37,088 nt of DNA, taken from IMG/VR virus record IMGVR_UViG_2061766007_000542. One strand, written 5' to 3'. The notes beneath the pieces are model-generated. The model saw nothing but the letters and a program-made list of their open reading frames with translations. It made no database searches and was not told the DNA's origin. Shown one piece after another: positions 13,018-36,456 of the stretch. Each line of letters opens with the position of its first letter. Positions within the stretch are counted from its first letter, which is position 1. The translations under genes were made by a program, and so were the position numbers. This DNA comes from an uncultured virus (IMG/VR IMGVR_UViG_2061766007_000542) (lineage: Duplodnaviria; Heunggongvirae; Uroviricota; Caudoviricetes).

Positions 13018-13788
13018 ATGTTTGATATACCAAGCCCTGATGAACTTGATCCAAATTTGAAATACGATTACAACCTCGTATGAAAACAATTCTCAAACGA
13101 GCAGATGCAATCACAATCAGCAGACACCTACGATCAATTTCTCTGACTCAGAGATACGCTCATCGATAGCAAGAAGAAATATCCGTGAAAAAGATGAGCA
13201 ACATTGATCGTAGGAGATAAAGAGAGGAGCGTAGAAATCAAATATAAAAACAGATTCAAAGCCTCTTTTGATGACTTCACAGCCTGTAATGTGGATAGTG
13301 AATGACCCTACGTATCATACGATACAACATACGGAAATCTTGGAGCAATCATCAATGAAGATTGAAGATATAGAATAGAACATAAATTCACAATCAAACC
13401 ACAGGCGAACACGGAAAGAATTATTGCTTATTGTGATTTTTTCGCAATCAACGATGACTGAACATATCCTACGAAATGACAACCAATCGCCGTGTATGAC
13501 TTGGTAGGGAAATTCTCAAAAACCTTTCAAGGATCAATCAGTGGAACTTGTCACGGAGAGGGAGGATGATCAGTAACAGGAACATGCAGTGTAAAAGTTG
13601 AATTCAAACTCTGAGATATTCTTCAGAAAATTACAGCATTATGATTCATTGAAAGAGATATGAGAAGATGAGATAAAATGGAATTCAAAGCAGTAGATGA
13701 AAACGACCAACTCCTCGAACTCATTCCAAACTCAAACTTTTTCTCAGTGCAACATTTAGATCTTAACAAAACAGAAAATGGCAACTAA
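13018..13788 (+). CDS. Putative tail/structural protein (256 aa)
   Basis: Open only with TGA=Gly; lies within the structural operon. Confidence 0.6.
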
Positions 13789-16540
13789 TCAACCAATCAA
13801 TAACATCTCACAACCACGAAACAGCCAAAATACTGCTAAATTTAACAATACTTATCAAGTAGGAGCAAACACTACGAATAACCTCTATAAACCAACCACA
13901 AAAGCACAACCAACCGTAGCAAAAACAAATACTACGAAAACAACAAACACTCCATGATTGACAAACAACATCGCTCAACCACGAGATAGCAAGAATACAG
14001 CAAAGTACAATAACACCTACCAAGTAGGAGCAAATACAACCAACAATCTCTATAAACCACGAGAACAAGGAGGAACAACAGCAACACCAAAAAAAGAAAC
14101 TGTTTCAAACACGAAAACTACTACAGGAGGACAAAGTACTCAACTCGGATACATCAATGAACTACAAAACCAAATCAAACAACTTCAAGAGGAAAACAAA
14201 AACTTAAACATCCTCTGTAAACCTGATGGGACACCACTTCCACCTGAACAGCAACCACCTGAAGTACAAAAAGAACTCAAGAAAACACCTAAAAAAGTAA
14301 ACAATCCACAGCCTCAACCACAAGTAGAACAACCACAAGAACAAGAGCCAGTGGATGAATTCGCTCCTGACTTTTATAAACAAGAACAACCACAAGAGGA
14401 AGTACAAGAAGAACAGCCACAAGAAGAAAACACCGAAAAAGAGGCAACGATCGATACAGAAAACAGAGAGGGAGTAATCTATGGAAGAGCAAGTGGGGAT
14501 GAGAGTACAAGAATAGAAACTAACAGCGACCAATACTCAGCAACTGATACATCTGTAAGAGAAAGACAAAACTCTCTCAATTCATTACTTGGTATGAGTG
14601 CAGAGAACATCGCAATCAGTATCAATAGCTGATATACTCCGTTCGGAGAACAAGGGATGAGAGATCTCCAACAATACGCACCTGAAAAATACAACTTGAT
14701 CCAACAGGAACTCAAGAAACTACAAACGATGGAAAATGTGAACTCTATCGCAAGTGGAGGAAGTATCAACATTACAAGTCAGATTCAAAACACTACCGAT
14801 ACCATCAATAACAGTATCGATGACCGAGCGAGAAGAAATTCTGATCCTCAAAGTTATGACAATACTCTAAGCAACCTAACAGAAAAACTCGCAAGTAGCC
14901 AAACGGCACAAAGTGCAACCCAAGAAATGCTCAATATTAATAAAGACATCGCAGAGATTCAGGCAAAGATGGAGAATCTACCAAACGAGGCAAAAAAGGC
15001 ATTTAAAGGAGATGTCCCTGATTATATCTACCAAGCGTACATCTCAAATAAACAGCAAGAATACCAAGCACAACTCAACAAACTCCAAAGCAGATACCAA
15101 TCAGCAAGTGATCTCTATAAAACGGAACTCGCTAATAAACAATGGGAGGCAGAGATGGAGATGAAAGAGCAACAAATGATGATCCAACAAAATCAACGAG
15201 CATTGGAACAAGAATTCAAGATGTCCCAACAAAACCGAGAGAACAACTTTAAAACAAATCAATTTAATTGGAATGTCTGACAGCAAAACCGAGAAAACAA
15301 CTTCAAAACAAATCAATTCAATCGGCAAGTAGGACAGCAAGATCGAGAGAATCAATACAAACTCAAACAATATGATCTCGATGTTAGCCAATTAAAACTC
15401 CAAAGCATGAAAACAGATAGCAGTGGTAGAGTTTTCCAAATCAATTCAGATGGAACTTACACTTATCTAAGTGATAGCACAGCAAAAGTTATCATGGATC
15501 AGCAAGTCGATGCAGGATTACAAGCATTAATGAAGAAATGTCCTCAATGAGCAACTTGATGGCAATGTGAAGCAGTAACGGATGAGTTCAATAGAAGTAC
15601 CTACGGACAAGAAATGCTCCCAAGAGATAAAGACTGAAACCCAAGTAAAAATCTTTGAAGGACATACACTACAGCAGAAGAAAAGAAATCCTATGTGAAT
15701 ACTCCCTACCTTATGAAATGAGCAACAGCAGTATTCAATTACAAGAAAAGTGATGGGGTTTCTGATGCCGCAGTAACATATGGACATACAGCCTTAATCG
15801 TTGGAATCGATGAACAAAACGGAACAGTGACCTACCTCGATGGAAACAGAAAATGAGATGAAGTAGTAAGATATAACACAATGCCAATTGAGGACTTCTA
15901 TAAAAAAACAGGACTTCAAGGATTCCGATACCCACCATACGATAAAAATCTTGATACAATCCAAACAAATGATGAAATAGCACAATCAAATTCTGTGTTA
16001 TTTGACAACTCAATGGCTTCACTTTATGGGAAATACAACAGTTGAAAAGGGCTTACAAAGGAAGACCGAAATACCGTAGACTCTGTATGAATATCAAGAA
16101 AAGAATTTATGCAACAAGCAACTAATTATAAAACACATCTTGAAGAACAAATGACACCACAAGTACAAGAGATGATCAATAATTTACAAGAAATTAAAAG
16201 CGAAATGTGAAGGATTGACTTCATCAATGCAGGAGTAGGAGAACAAGGTACACGATGAACAGAATGAGCATACCACAGAAGTCTTATCAATCAATTTATC
16301 GCAAGCAAATCCCTACAAAATCTTATTGATATGAAATCACAGGGAGCAACATTCGGAGCATTGTCTGATTCAGAATTGAATTTCATTTCAAACTCTGCAA
16401 CAAACCTCAATATGAATCTAAGTTATGGAGATTTTATGAAAGTGATTGATAAAACGTTAAATATCCTCGAAAAAGGGATAAAAACAGTAAAAACATCAAA
16501 ATGATCAGAAAATAACCAAAGAAAGAATCCACGAGCATAA
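13778..16540 (+). CDS. Internal virion/ejection protein with CHAP-like amidase domain (920 aa)
   Basis: Gln-rich coiled coils; GWQCEAVTD (about 15555) and YGHTALIVGID (about 15780) supply the Cys/His pair. Confidence 0.7.
13802..14058 (+). repeat. Duplicated ~31-aa unit NNI(S/A)QPW(N/D)S(Q/K)NTAK(F/Y)NNTYQVGANTTNNLYKP
   Basis: Two copies 162 nt apart. Confidence 0.85.
15227..15360 (+). repeat. 54-nt tandem coding repeat (QQNWENNFKTNQFNW.VG) x2.5
   Basis: TGG(15269) aligns with CGG(15323), and TGA(15278) aligns with GGA(15332). Confidence 0.9.
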
Positions 16541-16562: not shown

Positions 16563-19500
16563 ATGGTCAACATTTTATTAAACCAATCAGAAGAAGAAAA
16601 CAAACCATATTCTCCTTCAACAAACATCCTAAATACTCAGAGTTCAACTCTTTCTCAAACGAGCAAAGAAGAACAGAATAAGTTTCTGAATAGTCTTGAT
16701 GACTCACAATATCAGAAAATGGTAGACTATCACAAACAAGGATACTCCTTCGATCAAGCAAAAAATATGCTTGATTCTGACAAAAAAGAACAGCAAAAGT
16801 ACCTTGATAGTTTGGATGATGTACAATACAATAAAATGTTAGATTATTACAATCAAGGATACAGTTTTGAAGATGCACAAAATATGCTCATCAATGGAAC
16901 AAGTACAACCTGAAAAGCATTAAAAGGGAAAACAGTGTGAGGAGGTAGAAGATGACTTATAAATCCAACAGAAACAGGACAAGCACGATACAATATCACA
17001 AAACAGGATAGTAGTACTGCTTGAGATGTACTTGACTATGCAAACATCCCATGAGCGTTCACAGAAATGTTAGATAACCAAGTACAAAAAATCCCTAATT
17101 TTAACATCCAAGACAGAAGGACAGAATTACAAAAGCAAGTAGATAACCTCTCAAAAGAACAAAAAGCAGACTATAAAAAAGAGCGAGAATCGTTTGATCC
17201 TGCAACACAGAGTTATTTCTGATCTTTGAATAAGTATATGCTTTCGCAAGAGGCGTGAGTCCTTGATAGTATCTTTGAAACTTGGAGAGAGGATGAAGAA
17301 AACAAGGATGATTTCAATATCAAAAATACTATCTGAAACATACCGTGATCCTTAATAAAAACAGCAAGTGCAATCACAAGAGCAGTAACAAATCCTGCTG
17401 ACACGTTAGAATGAATAGGAGCGTTATGATGAGATGTTATTGATAACGGTCGAAATTCAATGCTCGCACAAGAATATGCAACCACAGAATGATGGAAGAA
17501 TTCACTCCAAAATGATCCTGTGGGTAGAGTTTCTGATGTGGTCGGTGCTATCGCTTGATGAGTCTGAATTGCTAAATGAATTGTAAGTGGTGCAGTAAGG
17601 GGATGAGCAAAATTATGAGCAGATGCAAGTAAACTCGCAAGGTTATCAAAAACAGCCTGAAAGTTATGAAGAGCTCAAAATGTTCTTGATAACATTTCTG
17701 ACCTTTGAATCACTAATCTCTACAAAGGAGAATGATGACTCCTTGATAAAGTAACAGGTAAACTCGCACAGTGAAATAAACTATCAAGAACTGCAGGATC
17801 AGTTTTAGAATTATCACAAAGACCACTAAAAACAATATGGAAATGAACTTCAAAATACGAACTCAAAGATAAAGATGGAAACGCTATAGAGCAACAATCC
17901 ATCAAATGAGTACATAATCTCGTAGAAAAAGCAATCGAACACGGTAAAGAAAAATATAAAGATTTCGCATCATGACTCACAGCAGAGAAAAGACAAAGAA
18001 TACAACAAAATCCTTATATCAAACCACTACGAGATGAAACTGTAAAAAAACTTGAATCAGAATGAGCGTCTTTCAATGATCAAGTCGTAGTAGAAAAGAT
18101 GTTTCAAGATTTATGAGATGAACTCGTCAAAAGAATAGATAAATACGAACAACAACTCTCAGATACAGGAGAATGATACGAGGCTTTGAAAAGCAACCCT
18201 GCAACTTTTAATCTCTCAAAAGCAGTAGCAGACATCAGACAGTTATTATTTGAGGAATGAATCAAAACCAACTCAAAATGAAAACTTGAATCATCAAAAT
18301 ACCATACTCCTGAAGAACTAAACGCATTGAATTTGGTGTGGGATTTCATCCAAAAAGCAAGACTCCACAACACAAACTTCAGAAATTATCACGATTTGAG
18401 GAGAGGGATCGATAAACTCGCAAAATATGACAAAGGAGGATCAGCACAAAACGTAAAATTGATCCAAAAGGTAAGAAGTATGATCGATAACGAGGCAAAA
18501 AAACAAATCCCATGATTAAAAGAAATTGATGATACTTATTCAAAGGAAATCAGAGAACTCAATAAGATAAAAGAGGGACTTGTATACAGACAAGGAGATA
18601 GAAAAGGGACTTATAGGGATAACTTTATGTCAATTCTAAAAAATCTCTGATGACAAAACAGACAAATGATGAAATGAAGATTAGAAGAAAGGATCTTCCC
18701 TTGAATTTGAGAACAAGTAGAGGCAATTAATATGATCCCTGAACTTGTGAAGTCTTATCAATGAAGTCCTGCATTGATGAAAGTTTTTTGAAAAATTATC
18801 TGAGCAGGAGGAGGATTCTGAACAAGTTTTATTAGATGAGCATTAAGTTTTTTATTATGAAGTCTCGCAGATGAACTCATCATCAGACCTCTCTGAGAGA
18901 AAATGAGAAAAAAAGTCATTGATAATTTAATGAAAGAGATGACTCCTGAGGCACAACAAAAACTCGCTGACATCGAATCTAAAAGACAAGCAGGAATAGA
19001 ACTCACAGAAGAAGATAAGAGAGTATTAGAAATGGGATTGAATAAAATCGCACAAGCTGTAAAACTTGAAACAGAAATCCAACCAAAAATAGATAAAGAA
19101 GTTGAGAAAAAGAAAAAAATAGATGAAGAAGAAAACAAAAAGAAAGCTGAAGAAACATGGAAGAAACAAGAGGAAGAACAAAAGAAAGTTCAGGAGGAGA
19201 TGGATAGTTTCCTCAATGATAGAGAAAAAGAACTTGAAACCATCAAGAATGAAGAAGTAGACTACTCTCAACTTAGTGATGAAACACTCAATAGACTCCG
19301 AGAAGATGATACGATCCCACAAGCTGAAAAAGATAAAATCGAGAACATTCTCATGGATAGAGTACAAAACGAAATCACAAGAGAGGCTCAAAAAGGACAA
19401 GCAAAAACAACAGCATTCACAAAAACCGATGCTGAATTCATAAGGAGAGCTCATCAATTACAAGAGATGGAGCAAAACATCGGTAAGGTAGGTAAGAACA

Positions 19501-22500
19501 AAGTAGGAGCAGAAACAAAAGAAAAACAAAGAAAACATCGAGAAGACCAAAGGGACAAATTGATCCAAGAAATCAAAGAGGCATACAAACTCGATCAATA
19601 CGAGGCACACGATAAATACGACCAATTCGTAAACGCAGGAATCGATGAAGAATACCTCACAAAGAGAGGAGGAAGACAAACAGCAGATAAAAAAGCAGAG
19701 AAAGAGATCATCGATAAACTCAACATGAAAAGAGAGCAATGGAACAAACAACCTGCATTTTTAAAAGGATTCTCACAAAAGGCACTCGATACAAGAGAAT
19801 ACTATCACACACTCCTTGATGGATACGAAATCCAAGCCGTAGACAAAGGAGATAGAATCGTAAAGAACGGAGAAACGGTAGGGAACATCACATACAAGCA
19901 AGATGGAACAATCGACTCTGTAATTGTAAAAGACCTTTGAAACTTCATTAAACAGAAAAAACTTCTCCAAGATCTCCCAGCAGATACTCAGATAAGAGTA
20001 GCAACAGATAAAAACAGTATCTCAGCAAAAGACCTCAGAGAGATAGAGTGAATCCAAGAGCCAAAGTATCAAATAGCATATCACGGATGACCTAATTCAT
20101 TTGATAGATTTGATCTTTCGCATTTATGAGAATGAGAGGGAGCACAGGCACACGGATACGGACACTATGTAGCACTTTCTGAAGATGTAGCAAGAGGATA
20201 TGCAGAGAAATGAAAAACGAGTAGAAACTTCTATGAAATCGACATCCCTGATGAAGTAAAGAAGAATACTCCTACTGGTACGAATTACCTTGATGAACAA
20301 AAGACTTATTCAGAAAAAAAATATGAGAAAATTTTTGAAAAATTAGAAGATAAACTATCTGAAAAACAAAAAACAGATATAGAAGAATACATTGATATGT
20401 ATAGAAATTCAAAATGATTGACTTGAGAACATATTTATAATATTCTCACAAAAACTTTATGAGATAAAAAGAAAGCATCAGAATTCTTAAACTCTCTTTG
20501 ATATGATGGGATAAAATATAAAGACCGGAATGACTGACATTGTGCAGTACTCTTTACTGATGAGGCGATGCAAATTGTAAATCATGAGAAATACCAAATA
20601 GCAGATCAGACAAAAACTCCTGAATTTAAGAAACGATTTGAAGGAAGTAAAGTAGTTGATGAAAATGGTAATCCTTTAGTTGTTTATCATGGTACTAATG
20701 CAAAATTTAACACCTTTGATGGAATAAAAACAGAACCTTGATACCGATTTACAGAAGATTTTGATTATGCTAAAGAACATTGAGACAATGTTAAAAGTGT
20801 CTATCTCAATATCAAAAATGTAGCAGATTTAGATACAATGCGAGAACTCTGAAAAGAAAAATTTGGAGACAATGTTGGAGAAAAGCAATTATTAAGTAAT
20901 GAATTTAAAGATTATCTCATCGAAAAGTGATATGATGGTATGGTATGGGATCATGATGGTAAAAATACTTATATTGCATTTAATCCAAACCAAATAAAGA
21001 GTGCAACAGACAATATCTGAACATTTGATCCAAATAATCCAGATATAAGATACCAAAAATTCTGAGTAGCAAAACAAGGAGAAAGGGGGATCACAGCTCA
21101 AGAAGGACTTGGGATGAAGAACTTTAAAAATGGAAGAAGTGTAGAGGAAATTGCAAAACACTATGGGATTGAAACGAAAATCGTGGATCAAATCCTTACT
21201 CCAAACGGAGATAAAGCATTGTGAAGTTATGGAGATGGACTTATCAAACTTGCAAAGGATCTCAAAGAGAGTACTGTACCTCATGAACTATGACACGCTG
21301 TATTTGATCTTGTAGATCAAAAAACAAAAGAAAAACTTCTTAATGTTGTAAAGAAAAAACTTGAAAGAGAGTGAAAAATGGAAGGGATAAAAGACAAAAA
21401 TCTCAATGCAGAAGAACGAATGATGGATGCTTTCTCTGAATACTTCAGAACAGGGGAATTTGAAGAAAGAGGTCGACCAACAGGGATCAAAAACAAAATC
21501 GTGGGATTCTTCCAAAGAGTGAAAGACTTTATCACATGAGTATACAAGGAGAGAAAACAGATTAAGAAACTTTTTGATGATATTCTTGAAGAAAAAATCA
21601 AAGTAGAAAAGAGTACAAGTCAGACTCAATATCAAAGTGCAGGAGATATTTATAGTAAAAACTTTAAGAATCGATTCTGAGATTGGGAGAAAGATCCAGA
21701 AAATGCGAGTAAAGTAGTAGATGAGAATGGGAATCCACAAATAATGTATCATGGAAGTAATGCTTGAGATTTTACGATTTTTGACCTTGATTATGCAAGA
21801 AAACAAAGTGATATACAGGCTTTTTTCTTCTCATCTTATAAAGATGAATCTCTTTGATATTGAAAAGTTAGGGACTTCTATCTTGATATTAAAAATCCAG
21901 CAGATTTTGATACGACTTATTGAATATTTAATAAATATAAATGACAAACAGACGGCTGAGTGAAAGCAAGAGAAGAATTGCAAAAACTTTGATATGATTG
22001 AATTGATAAATGAGAATGAGAACGAGTTGTATTTTCTCCAAATCAAATAAAATCTGCAACAGATAACAATGGAAACTTTAGTAAAACCGATGATGATATC
22101 AGACATCAAATAGCTTATAATGATTCAAAAGAAGATGCTCATAAAACGAACATCAAAAGTAACGAGAAATTCCAATTATGAGATTGAAAACCTATGTCAT
22201 CAGAAGAAAAACAAGAAAAAGTTGATTCAATAAAAAAGAGAGAGCAGATGATGGATAGTTGAAAACTCTCAAGGAATAAAACCTTTAAAACACTTTTGAA
22301 AAATAACTATGTTTCAAAGGAAATAAGAGAAAAGACTTGAGATGAAAGTTATAAACAAGAAACGGATAAACGTAAAGATCAATTCGCATTGGAAGAAATG
22401 AATTTGAAATGACCACAAGTAATAAAACGAGATAATCGTACTGTTGATAACTATTGAAATAAGAAAAAGCCTTGACCTTATCTTGAATATCATTGAATTA

Positions 22501-22574
22501 TGTGATTTCACGTTTGATACCCTGTATGGAATCAAGCACAAAAGATAAGAAAACAAATGGATGAAAAAACATAA
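16563..22574 (+). CDS. Large polyvalent virion protein (2003 aa): three ART-PolyVal-like modules and a zincin HExxH peptidase
   Basis: AYHGG..FDRFD..GEGAQAHGYGHY; TPEFKKWFEGSKVVDENGNPLVVYHGT; PHELGHA; FKNWFGDW..SKVVDENGNPQIMYHGS; NQIKSATDN.G.F; N-terminal 39-aa duplication. Confidence 0.85.
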
Positions 22575-29227: not shown

Positions 29228-29512
29228 ATGGCTTTATCTAATGAAACCCTTGAAATCATGTTAAACGACTTGAAAAGAAATCAGCAGGAACTGAAAGAAG
29301 ATTATACAAAGAAATTTGAAGATTTATGAAATAAGATTGATAGATTATCCGAAAAAATCGATAGTCTACCGAATAATTATGTAACAAGGGGAGAATTCGA
29401 CTATTGTAAGGACAAAGTGAAAACAATGGAAGAAAGATGGAACAAGATAGTATGGATACTTATCACGGCAATTATTGGTGCAGTTCTGAGTTTAGTTTTA
29501 ATACCAAAATAA
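29228..29512 (+). CDS. Coiled-coil plus C-terminal TM protein (XhlA-like lysis accessory, 94 aa)
   Basis: YVTRGEF..KIVWILITAIIGAVLSLVL; upstream of the holin. Confidence 0.65.
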
Positions 29513-29539
29513 ATCTTTTATTCATAACCAATTATAAAA

Positions 29540-29797
29540 ATGTTATTAGAAGTATTAATCGGAATCGCAATGAGCGTTATCACGCAAGTAGCGAAAAAAA
29601 CAAAGATCGATGGTAAGTACATCATCGCTGTACTTTCCATAATTCTCGGAGGAATCTACTTCTTCGTGAAAAAAAATCATCCTGAAATCGTAGAGGAAGT
29701 GATGACCTTCACAATTGGAATCTATGGAATAAGCCAAGTCGTTTACAATTACATCATCAAACGATTTGAAAAGGATAAAAAGGAGGAAACGAAATAA
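29540..29797 (+). CDS. Putative holin (85 aa)
   Basis: Multiple hydrophobic segments and a charged C-terminus; precedes the peptidase. Confidence 0.6.
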   Translation: MLLEVLIGIAMSVITQVAKKTKIDGKYIIAVLSIILGGIYFFVKKNHPEIVEEVMTFTIGIYGISQVVYNYIIKRFEKDKKEETK

Positions 29798-29837
29798 TCC
29801 TCCTTCTTAATCAGAATTTTATTTTTTTTAAAACACG

Positions 29838-30689
29838 ATGACAGAAAACAACGGATGCTTAGGAGATGGATATACAAGAACAGACTATCTCCTCTCTGCA
29901 GAAGAAATCAACGCACTCCCTGAACTCGAACAGCAGGATGATATCATCTTTGAATACAATCAAGGGGACTCAAATGACTGTACTATTTACTCGGCTCTCG
30001 GAGCATTATCAGACCTTTATAACCGTGAAGTTACACAGGAGCAAATCGAGGAATGTAACGAGGAAAGTTATAAGAGAGGGAGAGTAAGAGGGAACGGTCG
30101 ATTCACAAAAAAAGCAGTGGAAACATGCTGTGACAAGTGGATGGAACGATACCCAACGGACAAAGTGTTTTTTTATGCTTTGAGAAACCGAAATAATGAA
30201 GAAAACTTCAATAAAATCCTTGAGAAATGATACAGCATCTGTACCTCTTTCAATGGGAACAGATCCTATCAAAAAGACCGTGATGATAACGGACAGATTG
30301 ATAAAGCAGAGCACGGAGAGAGTACCTACGGACACGCAGTAAACCTCAGAAAATACGGTAAATGGGACAGAGCAGTAAAAGACTCCTACAAGGGAAGAAA
30401 AACGAACATCTACGGATTGATCCCAACGATCGATGAACTGAATAATGCAGGGACACGGCAAAACTGGTCGTATGTAATCCTGAAAGACAAATCAGCAGAG
30501 GCGAAAGTCAGAGAGGACATCAAAAGACTCAACAGGATGAAAACACGCCTCACTGGGATGATCGAAGATAACTCAGCAATGTGGGAAGACACACATGATG
30601 AAGAATACAGAAAAGAACTCCATATCATCAATGAGATGAATAGGAAGAAGATACAGGACTGCAATAGAGAACTTGCTAAGTATATGTAA
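29838..30689 (+). CDS. Papain-like (C1/C39-type) cysteine peptidase, probable endolysin (283 aa)
   Basis: YNQG...DCTIYS, YGHAV and VKDSY motifs; follows the holin. Confidence 0.65.
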
Positions 30690-35315: not shown

Positions 35316-35344
35316 GTCAGACTTTTATTCTTTTATAAAAATAC

Positions 35345-35749
35345 ATGGGAGAAAAAACACTAACCATCATTAAACTATCAGTAACAGCATTATTAATCAT
35401 CGGAATTTTATCTTTGACTTTCGTGGTAGGACAAAACAGAATCAGCGAAAAAGATCAAAGAGCAATCAACAGCCTCGAGGAAGTATTAAAGATAAAACAA
35501 CAAAAGCAAAACTGCCTCGATAATCTCACGGCATTACAAACAGAGGAATACCTCAAATGAGTGTGAGATTACTGCAAAACAGATGATGAGAGAATCAAAG
35601 AACTCAAAAGTATCATCGACTCAACCATCAATGGATTTGAATACGAAAACATTGATAGATTGATCCAAGAAAAGAAAGATGGACAAATCATCAACAATAC
35701 AGGGATGACAGCCATCGAAAAATTAGAGGGTTTATTAGCGAGTGAGTAA
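35345..35749 (+). CDS. Membrane-anchored protein (134 aa; short product of a frameshift gene)
   Basis: N-terminal TM helix; ends ...LEGLLASE*. Confidence 0.7.
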
Positions 35750-36222
35750 ACACTCAGACAAAAAATCTCTCCAATGAGAAAAAAATTGAGGAGAAACACG
35801 AGGTAGTATCGTCCACAAAAAAAGAAACAGAAGAAAAAAAATCTGAAGTCGAACAACAAACCATCAAGAAAAAAGAATACGAAGAAAATGATTTGAGAAA
35901 CGAGATGATACAGTATGCATACAACATCGGATGACTTGACTTGGTACTGATGATGGAATGTGAAAATTCCACACGGAACATGTACAGACAGAGCGAAGTG
36001 GTAAAGAACTGAAGAAGAGAGCCTTCCTACTGACTCTGCATGATTGACAGGGACTTTCATCCTGAAATTATAGATGATCCACGTTTTCGGTCAGATCGAA
36101 AACGACAGATAGAAACCTGCAACAGACTCTATACATGAGGAACAAAATTCTACTGACCATCAAGAATCGTAAAAGGACAAAGATGTTCAGAATATGTGAA
36201 ACAGAGATTCACACTGACCTAA
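35728..36222 (+). CDS. Lytic transglycosylase-like domain in the -1 frame (probable frameshift extension of 35345)
   Basis: MMECENSTWN...SYGLCMI motif. The frame has no start codon between the TAG at 35656 and about 35893, and G GGT TTA lies at 35728-35734. Confidence 0.65.
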
Positions 36223-36432
36223 GCAAGTCGCTATAAACTGCAGTGCTTATATAACAAAGGCGAGAGCCTGTCCCAAACAAGACATAAAACTGTTTCCTAT
36301 TTGCTGTAGGAGGTTATGGATACCACAGCACAAAGATAGCAAAGCAAAAAAGAACAAAAGTAAAACTTCCATTCATTGATCATAATAAAGTAAAAATCAG
36401 ATAAAACATCCATCCATAACCTGTGCTATCTT
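36216..36432 (+). ncRNA. Second composite structured RNA element (two pseudoknot repeats, GNRA hairpin, long-range helices)
   Basis: Pseudoknots at 36216-36241 and 36269-36295; AGGC-GAGA-GCCT hairpin; helices 36311-36321/36412-36422 and 36333-36341/36424-36432. Confidence 0.55.
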
Positions 36433-36456
36433 TTAATTGATAAAAAAACAAAAAAC

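Follow-up and report, generated by a model that had tools for sequence, protein, structure and literature searches.

The stretch analysed here (the window) is IMG/VR virus record IMGVR_UViG_2061766007_000542, 37,088 nucleotides (nt) from an uncultured virus of the Caudoviricetes, and the element in question is a gene at 35345-36222 in which a short membrane-anchor open reading frame (ORF) is overlapped, one base back, by an ORF for a lysozyme-like domain. With a probability of about 85%, judged from sequence, we read this arrangement as a conserved programmed -1 ribosomal frameshift in a temperate phage that uses genetic code 25 and infects Patescibacteria-type hosts. Sequence hallmarks of a canonical -1 frameshift are present, namely a slippery heptamer, a downstream structure, an overlapping -1 ORF without an initiation signal of its own, and conservation together with fused homologues. 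The first-pass annotation had proposed such a shift at this site, and the proposal is borne out by the in-phase heptamer, a covarying hairpin, a start-less coding linker, natural fusions and independent assemblies without an indel. The features of the gene are as follows.

35324-35335, + strand: gene-start motif, TTTA at -21 and -13 of the anchor ATG
35345-35749, + strand: zero-frame ORF in code 25, encoding a 134-amino-acid (aa) membrane-anchor protein, the predicted anchor-only product
35354-35428, + strand: predicted transmembrane (TM)/signal-anchor helix, residues 4-28 (DSSP on the AlphaFold 2 (AF2) model; hydrophobic N-terminus conserved)
35728-35734, + strand: candidate slippery heptamer, G GGT TTA, phased as X XXY YYZ (zero-frame codons GGT 35729-35731 and TTA 35732-35734)
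35735-35739, + strand: 5-nt spacer (3-5 nt in relatives)
35740-35755, + strand: hairpin GAGTG (35740-35744), loop AGTAAA, CACTC (35751-35755), a probable stimulator
35747-35749, + strand: zero-frame stop TAA, 12 nt past the heptamer and in the hairpin loop
35734-35859, + strand: -1-frame linker, lysine/glutamate (K/E)-rich, predicted to be disordered, with no ATG, GTG or TTG
35860-36222, + strand: predicted lysozyme/lytic-transglycosylase-like domain (ECEN ... SYGLCMI) in the -1 frame, with stop TAA at 36220-36222
35893-35907, + strand: candidate internal starts TTG 35893 and ATG 35905, within the folded domain at residues 56 and 60

Relatives of the gene were collected through the lysozyme-like domain. 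The domain as query gave four viral loci and an alignment of these gave 21, whereas a search of viral contigs with the anchor protein alone found no relatives, and related anchors were reached solely via the search with the domain. Loci L007, L008 and L020 are the same and were collapsed, as were L011 and L012, the closely similar L016 and L017 (L017 being truncated on its 5' side) and the closely similar L022 and L023; L001-L004, on the same contigs as L005, L006, L022 and L023, were also collapsed. This left 16 distinct loci in which an upstream ORF could be seen, made up of the window and IMG/VR loci, with 32-73% identity in the domain. In all 16, an anchor ORF for an N-terminal TM helix and a helical region is followed in its -1 frame by the domain ORF, which is open across the junction. 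A further locus, L021, has no anchor ORF, and its domain ORF has an ATG of its own and a lipoprotein-like signal.

The heptamer had been placed in the correct phase 12 nt before the zero-frame stop and proved to be so, with GGT and TTA as zero-frame codons and TAA at 35747-35749. The hexamer GGGTTT has just two occurrences in the window's 37 kb, and among 61 in-phase XXXYYYZ heptamers in 29 scored window ORFs none is GGGTTTN; in these ORFs GGT makes up 7.5% of 617 glycine codons and G stands at 12.5% of third positions. An in-phase G GGT TTN was found in 14 of the 16 distinct loci (N being A twelve times, G once and T once), and with the -1 offset kept in 16 of 16 the homologues share both site and frame, a comparison that the first-pass annotation had suggested. 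The distance from heptamer to zero-frame stop ranges from 3 to 21 nt in relatives, and an additional example, G GGT TTT, is present on L026, a contig from a metagenome-assembled genome (MAG). The codon before the heptamer GGT is GAG, TTG, AGG, ATG, GTG or CAG, encoding E, L, R, M, V or Q, with an invariant final G, and the glycine of GGT is the sole near-invariant anchor residue besides Met1 in the anchor alignment. By these sequence comparisons the heptamer is conserved at the nucleotide level, not at the protein level. GGGTTTA is also the only in-phase XXXYYYZ heptamer in the 91-nt overlap of the window (35659-35749), and the overlap common to all loci is about 22-28 nt around the heptamer. 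A long-range pairing of GGGTTT with a conserved downstream AAAATCC was considered and set aside, since AAAAATCC also encodes a conserved -1-frame K-N-P and is missing from L011, L019 and L018.

The hairpin GAGTG-AGTAAA-CACTC, described earlier as lying 5 nt past the heptamer, is found as described at 35740-35755. It is the minimum free energy element of 35735-35780 (-9.9 kcal/mol, z -2.97), with 2 of 200 shuffles as good. Relatives have a hairpin with an AGNNAA loop 3-5 nt past the heptamer, with stems that differ by lineage (GAGTG/CACTC, AGAAC/GTTCT, AGAGC/GCTCT, GTGG/CCAC and GCAG/CTGC). Ungapped windows of 6+6+6 nt with the AGNNAA loop in the middle have the inner four pairs in 11 of 12 distinct sequences; of 60 cells 52 are paired, and only 15-24 once the 3' arm is slid. 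MAFFT applied to the 18-mers moved the window clade by one column, and pairs were for this reason counted on the ungapped windows and on an 11-locus ungapped alignment that leaves out the window clade. In this alignment 96% of cells were paired compared to 70% after shuffling (0/500), compensatory, two-sided changes were found in four of the five hairpin pairs, and the covariation score was 0.707 compared to 0.229 after shuffling (0/500), with 20-42% pairing in slid controls. A covariance model built from the same alignment had its best match in the window at 35725-35766 (17.9 bits; runner-up 10.2 bits). This conservation of pairing suggests that the hairpin probably stimulates the shift.

The -1 frame is open from 35659 to 36222, of which 35659-35749 (91 nt) overlaps the zero-frame ORF. 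The sequence agrees with the earlier description of this frame as open to 36222 with about 55 K/E-rich codons and no start: no ATG, GTG or TTG is present in the -1 frame across 35659-35892, the first being TTG 35893, 55 codons past the heptamer, and the first ATG being 35905. In relatives the linkers range from 23 to 61 aa and keep the frame in every case, their indels being all multiples of three. Both directly past the junction and further on they carry conserved peptide motifs, among them (G)F..EQ.SS.NP and LYIEPNPTEEE, which in most loci sit upstream of the first ATG. On this protein-level conservation the -1-frame linker is coding.

Gene starts in the window carry a motif that the candidate internal starts lack. 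A TTTA starting at -26 to -12 precedes 29 of the 31 window gene starts (mode -21 to -23), compared to a background frequency of 8.1% over all positions and 8.8% at other ATGs in the window, and the motif also precedes 17 of 17 anchor starts in related loci, with a local consensus of roughly yTTTTATTCTTTAAAC...ATG. Upstream of the same 31 window gene starts a Shine-Dalgarno-like motif was found in none (0/31). In these code-25 phages and their hosts the TTTA motif may signal initiation in place of a Shine-Dalgarno sequence, or it may be a promoter element repeated for each gene. TTG 35893 and ATG 35905 are both without it, it accompanies 1 of 41 candidate -1-frame start codons across the 16 loci, and L016 has no candidate at all. 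In the AlphaFold model of the -1 product, residues 1-40 have a predicted local distance difference test (pLDDT) score below 50 and residues 41-164 a score of about 90; the fold begins at about residue 43, and a modelled strand (46-48) and a conserved block lie upstream of the candidate starts. The first-pass annotation had held that an independent start at about 35893/35905 with no conserved heptamer would speak against a frameshift, and the sequence favours neither half of this, as both starts lack TTTA and 14 of 16 loci have the heptamer.

A profile search of 1.84 billion representatives identified 508 homologues of the domain (E<=1e-3), and some of these join anchor and domain in one frame. 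P0006 (263 aa) is a single ORF in which residues 8-93 align to the anchor of locus L025 (43% identity, E 1e-20) and residues 125-256 to the -1 product of that locus (E 9e-26), with a stretch between them that resembles the junction motif. Being colinear with the two L025 products, P0006 corresponds to the predicted transframe protein, encoded in a single frame. An in-frame build of anchor and domain is likewise seen in P0046 and P0047. Many database entries of 200-240 aa consist of a TM segment, a linker and the domain, and others of a signal peptide and the domain. An in-frame hydrophobic N-terminal segment was present in 26 of 72 database representatives with an ECEN-type motif, and the ECEN-type entries without one mostly open with a spurious start followed by the junction peptide. 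Signal peptides of their own were seen in L021 and in the Patescibacteria-type MAG copies L028-L030, and longer homologues carry SLH cell-wall-binding domains. The in-frame TM and fusion forms, the signal peptides and the SLH domains indicate that the domain is an exported, wall-associated module, and as the window sequence reads, only the frameshift can give the lysozyme-like domain an export signal there.

The database records of this family have peculiarities of their own. Many of the entries P0002-P0151 have Trp at the invariant Gly positions of the family, which indicates that many database homologues were translated with TGA as Trp, and many begin with out-of-frame junk before the junction peptide, so that the family is systematically mis-annotated. 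The contig of locus L027 bears the title of a Clostridia MAG. It differs very little from the L022 phage locus, and its domain-frame ORF contains 18 in-frame TGA codons; probably this contig belongs to a code-25 phage and was placed by binning in a MAG to which it is unrelated.

A check against an indel had also been suggested, and here contigs from four of four runs, belonging to four different, independent studies, bridge the junction at 35728-35755, each with 12-23 substitutions and without a gap. These runs come from bovine gut metagenomes or from unlabelled samples, and not one is flagged as a possible source of the window DNA. Among the substitutions listed none lies between 35713 and 35778; as 11 differences fall outside that listing, this was not used as evidence.

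The lysozyme-like domain was assigned by fold and motif. VIA-align of the AlphaFold model against 48,161 chains gave top rows that are almost all from the lysozyme superfamily, with Z scores of 5.9-7.9 and matches spanning residues 43-164: c-type lysozyme (7.9), the phage lytic transglycosidase 9udh (7.0), MltF (6.9), DslA (6.4), EtgA (6.2) and SLT70 (5.9). The domain family has invariant E, C, E, G and C residues, and four invariant Cys in total. An invariant E-C-E-(N/S) closes the helix 56-79, followed by an invariant G..C(Q/M) within a G-L-C-(Q/M) motif; both this placement of E-C-E-(N/S) and the G-L-C-(Q/M) motif are in keeping with the lysozyme superfamily, and the helix-end Glu may be the catalytic residue. 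The Pfam SLT model (PF01464) matched 1 of 17 relatives, at E 0.09 and thus below any cut-off, and did not match the window protein; NCBIfam AggPromo_Cterm, an aggregation-promoting-factor C-terminal model, gave a weak match in 3 of 17 relatives (E 4e-4). A sequence-profile search of the PDB with the window domain returned only an irrelevant match (E 1.2). On the modelled fold we call the domain lysozyme/lytic-transglycosylase-like; it is not a member of Pfam SLT, and it may be muralytic. The earlier label 'lytic-transglycosylase-like' therefore stands as to fold and motif, and not as to membership of the SLT family.

Of the other explanations for this locus, a pair of separate genes was considered, in which the lysozyme-like ORF would start at TTG 35893, ATG 35905 or a non-canonical start in the linker, and the heptamer would be just a conserved Gly-Leu. 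Start codons are indeed present at 35893 and 35905, ATGs occur in the linker or overlap of L005 (2288), L006 (2489), L007 (2402) and L022 (2408, 2423), and the canonical heptamer is missing from two lineages. We nevertheless consider two genes improbable, in view of the lack of TTTA at the window candidates (a motif that 29 of 31 window genes have), its presence at 1 of 41 candidates overall and the lack of any candidate in L016. The two starts, at residues 56 and 60, fall within a modelled domain whose fold begins at about 43, and the linker upstream of them is conserved as protein and in frame throughout. An internally started product would also have no export signal, whereas in-frame homologues have a TM segment or signal peptide, and the rare GGT and the wobble G before it are conserved whatever the amino acid. 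A change of frame by other means, through transcriptional slippage or at another slip site in the 91-nt overlap, is a still slimmer prospect. The heptamer-less lineages share the architecture, and the window overlap, at 35659-35749, leaves room for such a site; however, the junction has no long homopolymer (the longest run is five A), GGGTTTA is the sole in-phase XXXYYYZ in the overlap, and the overlap common to the loci shrinks to about 22-28 nt.

Decay of an ancestral in-frame anchor-lysozyme gene, frameshifted by mutation so that only the anchor fragment is made, would agree with the in-frame fusions P0006, P0046 and P0047 in relatives and with the loss of the heptamer in 2 of 16 lineages. 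It is very unlikely, as the -1 frame is open and the domain keeps its invariant catalytic-type residues across 16 diverged loci, and the linker indels are all multiples of three; the maintained offset, heptamer and covarying hairpin point to purifying selection, not decay. No supporting point was found for an assembly or sequencing indel in a gene that is truly a single ORF, and with contigs of four studies bridging the junction without gaps, and the same offset in contigs of many metagenomes, we give this explanation next to no weight.

Several observations weigh against a conserved programmed frameshift ending in a wall enzyme. Some loci have no canonical heptamer and yet keep the -1 arrangement and the hairpin, namely L002/L006 (A ACT TTT) and L003/L004/L022/L023/L027 (A TGA TTG). 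In L006 (2375-2434) A ACT TTT leaves only a T TTT single-tRNA slip, and in L022 (2315-2374) the Gly codon at the heptamer position is TGA; candidate -1-frame starts in these two lineages are likewise without the TTTA motif. The heptamer-less lineages imply either another mode of slipping or a purpose of the hairpin beyond frameshifting. The hairpin itself is small (4-6 base pairs, with single-sequence z scores from +0.3 to -4.4), its 3-5 nt spacer is short compared to the usual 5-9 nt, that of L018 is different, its register was picked by eye, and the covariance-model E-value for the window is marginal (0.14). The loci are phylogenetically related and the counts over them are therefore of non-independent events. 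Under code 25 the +1 frame, too, is open (35742-36236), which makes an open frame alone weak evidence here. The enzyme assignment is soft, with no match to the window domain in Pfam or PHROGs, no Foldseek match against the PDB at E<=1e-3 (the top rows being lysozymes and lytic transglycosylases) and every VIA-align Z below 8.

Under the frameshift reading, ribosomes would start at ATG 35345 and mostly terminate at TAA 35747, yielding the 134-aa protein, predicted to consist of an N-terminal transmembrane signal-anchor and then a helical extracytoplasmic region. Some ribosomes would slip back one base on G GGT TTA (35728-35734), probably aided by the small hairpin 5 nt downstream, and read the -1 frame from 35734 to 36219. 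We infer from sequence that this slip actually occurs. The resulting transframe protein would be about 292 aa long (130 zero-frame and 162 -1 codons) and ordered as anchor, disordered K/E linker and C-terminal lysozyme/lytic-transglycosylase-like domain. As the catalytic domain has neither a start nor an export signal of its own, the shift would both get it translated and bring it through the membrane to the cell wall. The role may be membrane-tethered cell-wall remodelling or an aid to lysis, with the anchor-only form perhaps a partner or regulator. The roles put forward in the first-pass annotation, namely the setting of a product ratio, superinfection exclusion and remodelling of the epibiont-host interface, are speculative.

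A more specific scheme, which we put forward as speculation and think rather unlikely, is that many anchor-only and few anchor-lysozyme subunits form a dose-limited, tethered wall-cutting complex. The two subunits, encoded by a single gene, would co-assemble via their shared helical ectodomain, and the complex would be made early in infection or by a prophage residing in an ultra-small bacterium that lives attached to a host, with possible uses in local wall opening for DNA traffic, cell-cell attachment or timed lysis. In the same scheme the AGNNAA hairpin would be a new compact stimulator, specific to Shine-Dalgarno-less code-25 translation, that persists where the heptamer has been lost.

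The first-pass annotation had also called the zero-frame product a membrane anchor, and a hydrophobic N-terminal helix at residues 4-28, seen in the AF2 model and the alignment, is in keeping with this. In the AF2 model the rest of the protein is all-helical, with a mean pLDDT of 68.8 (low confidence), and the helical region of the 134-aa anchor contains two Cys. The anchor alignment is diverged, with a mean column identity of 31%, and the hydrophobic N-terminus is kept. In PADLOC the -1 product had no match, and those of the anchor were weak and unconvincing (TIR-TM, E 0.0039; GajB, E 0.0093). A holin or spanin identity of the anchor-only product was considered and found no support, the best PHROG holin match having E 0.075 and the gene adjoining Erf and not the lysis cassette.

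Read under NCBI table 25 the window is a phage genome with every gene on the + strand. The 2003-aa ORF at 16563-22574 (+) contains 88 in-frame TGA codons. In a 17-domain alignment TGA occupies the invariant Gly columns 24, 25, 51, 58 and 100 in 9-13 of 17 rows, and at these five columns it swaps only with GGN and never with Trp codons, making TGA = Gly the correct reading. The genetic code is thus code 25, with in-frame TGA aligned to Gly of homologues. The same ORF carries the ADP-ribosyltransferase 'polyvalent protein' domain PF18760 (E 2e-45, in three stretches).

Genes identified elsewhere in the window are those for NinG (3502), terminase (4633), major head protein (9518), integrase (31418) and Erf (34310). 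Erf adjoins the frameshift gene, and NinG and terminase come after the wrap-around, which places the frameshift gene in a recombination/early block; in relatives it is placed likewise, L003 having NinB-like and methyltransferase genes as neighbours. The earlier label of an early operon agrees with this neighbourhood and with an XhlA-like lysis cassette lying elsewhere. That probable cassette, at 29228-30689, comprises an XhlA-like gene and then two further ORFs, and since the frameshift gene is outside it, end-of-cycle lysis is not an obvious role for the gene. The cassette ORFs encode a 94-aa XhlA/hemolysin-like protein with a C-terminal TM segment, an 85-aa product and a 283-aa protein without a family match, whose Cys/His pattern reminds us of papain-like peptidases. 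A weak CHAP match (E 0.0068) was obtained for the 920-aa ORF at 13778-16540. The lysozyme-like ORF is followed by about 230 nt (36223-36456) in which there is no convincing ORF, and scans of the whole window for Rfam families (gathering score) and for tRNAs found no family and no tRNA.

If the reading is true, this is a new class of frameshifted phage gene, one that joins an anchor to an exported cell-wall enzyme. The frameshift gene would be a rare handle on translation control in the uncultivated TGA = Gly Patescibacteria-type hosts of the rumen or gut, with the compact covarying hairpin and the TTTA motif as testable translation signals for the lineage. Gene callers split the frameshift gene or misplace its start, and recognising the shift would correct the annotation of a 508-member family.

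Phage -1 frameshifts are textbook cases in tail chaperones and capsid genes. Lambda G/GT and T7 gene 10A/10B share with the window gene a -1 slip on X XXY YYZ near the end of a short ORF, a major short and a minor C-terminally extended product with a common N-terminal part, and a position conserved across diverged phages. They differ in being virion-assembly or structural genes, whereas here the gene lies in the recombination/early region by Erf and places an exported enzyme domain on an anchor. E. coli dnaX (gamma/tau) likewise has a -1 shift, which sets the ratio of two products with a common N-terminus, and a hairpin a few nt downstream; however, the dnaX shift truncates its product and has an upstream Shine-Dalgarno-like stimulator, whereas here the shift would extend the product, 0 of 31 starts have a Shine-Dalgarno motif and the hairpin is much smaller. 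The heptamer is identical to the GGGUUUA of gag-pol of the yeast L-A virus, which in contrast is a eukaryotic double-stranded RNA virus with a pseudoknot stimulator.

On the enzyme side, the domain resembles GH23/SLT-type transglycosylases, goose- and c-type lysozymes and EtgA in its modelled fold, in a helix-end Glu followed by S or N, and in G-L-C-Q/M. The ECESGFNP..GLCQ of L021 is close to the SLT signature. Unlike GH23/SLT proteins, the window protein has no Pfam SLT match and its family has four invariant Cys. Signal-anchored (SAR-type) endolysins, and endolysin genes that give two products through internal initiation, similarly have a muralytic domain tethered by an N-terminal TM segment or a pair of products with a module in common. 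In the window gene this common module is the N-terminal anchor, the second product would arise by frameshifting and not by internal initiation, and the gene lies outside the apparent lysis cassette at 29228-30689.

The titles and abstract openings of genome papers and of papers on Patescibacteria (candidate phyla radiation, CPR) and on recoded-stop phages report no frameshift in a lysin or transglycosylase gene, and in the full text of an mBio paper on phages of code-25 bacteria (PMC10746230) 'frameshift', 'transglycosylase', 'lysozyme' and 'endolysin' have 0 occurrences. Frameshift cases are not known to include one that attaches an exported wall enzyme to an anchor, or one that supplies both translation and export. 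In its mechanism this is a known kind of frameshift, in a new gene context and in a new group of hosts and phages.

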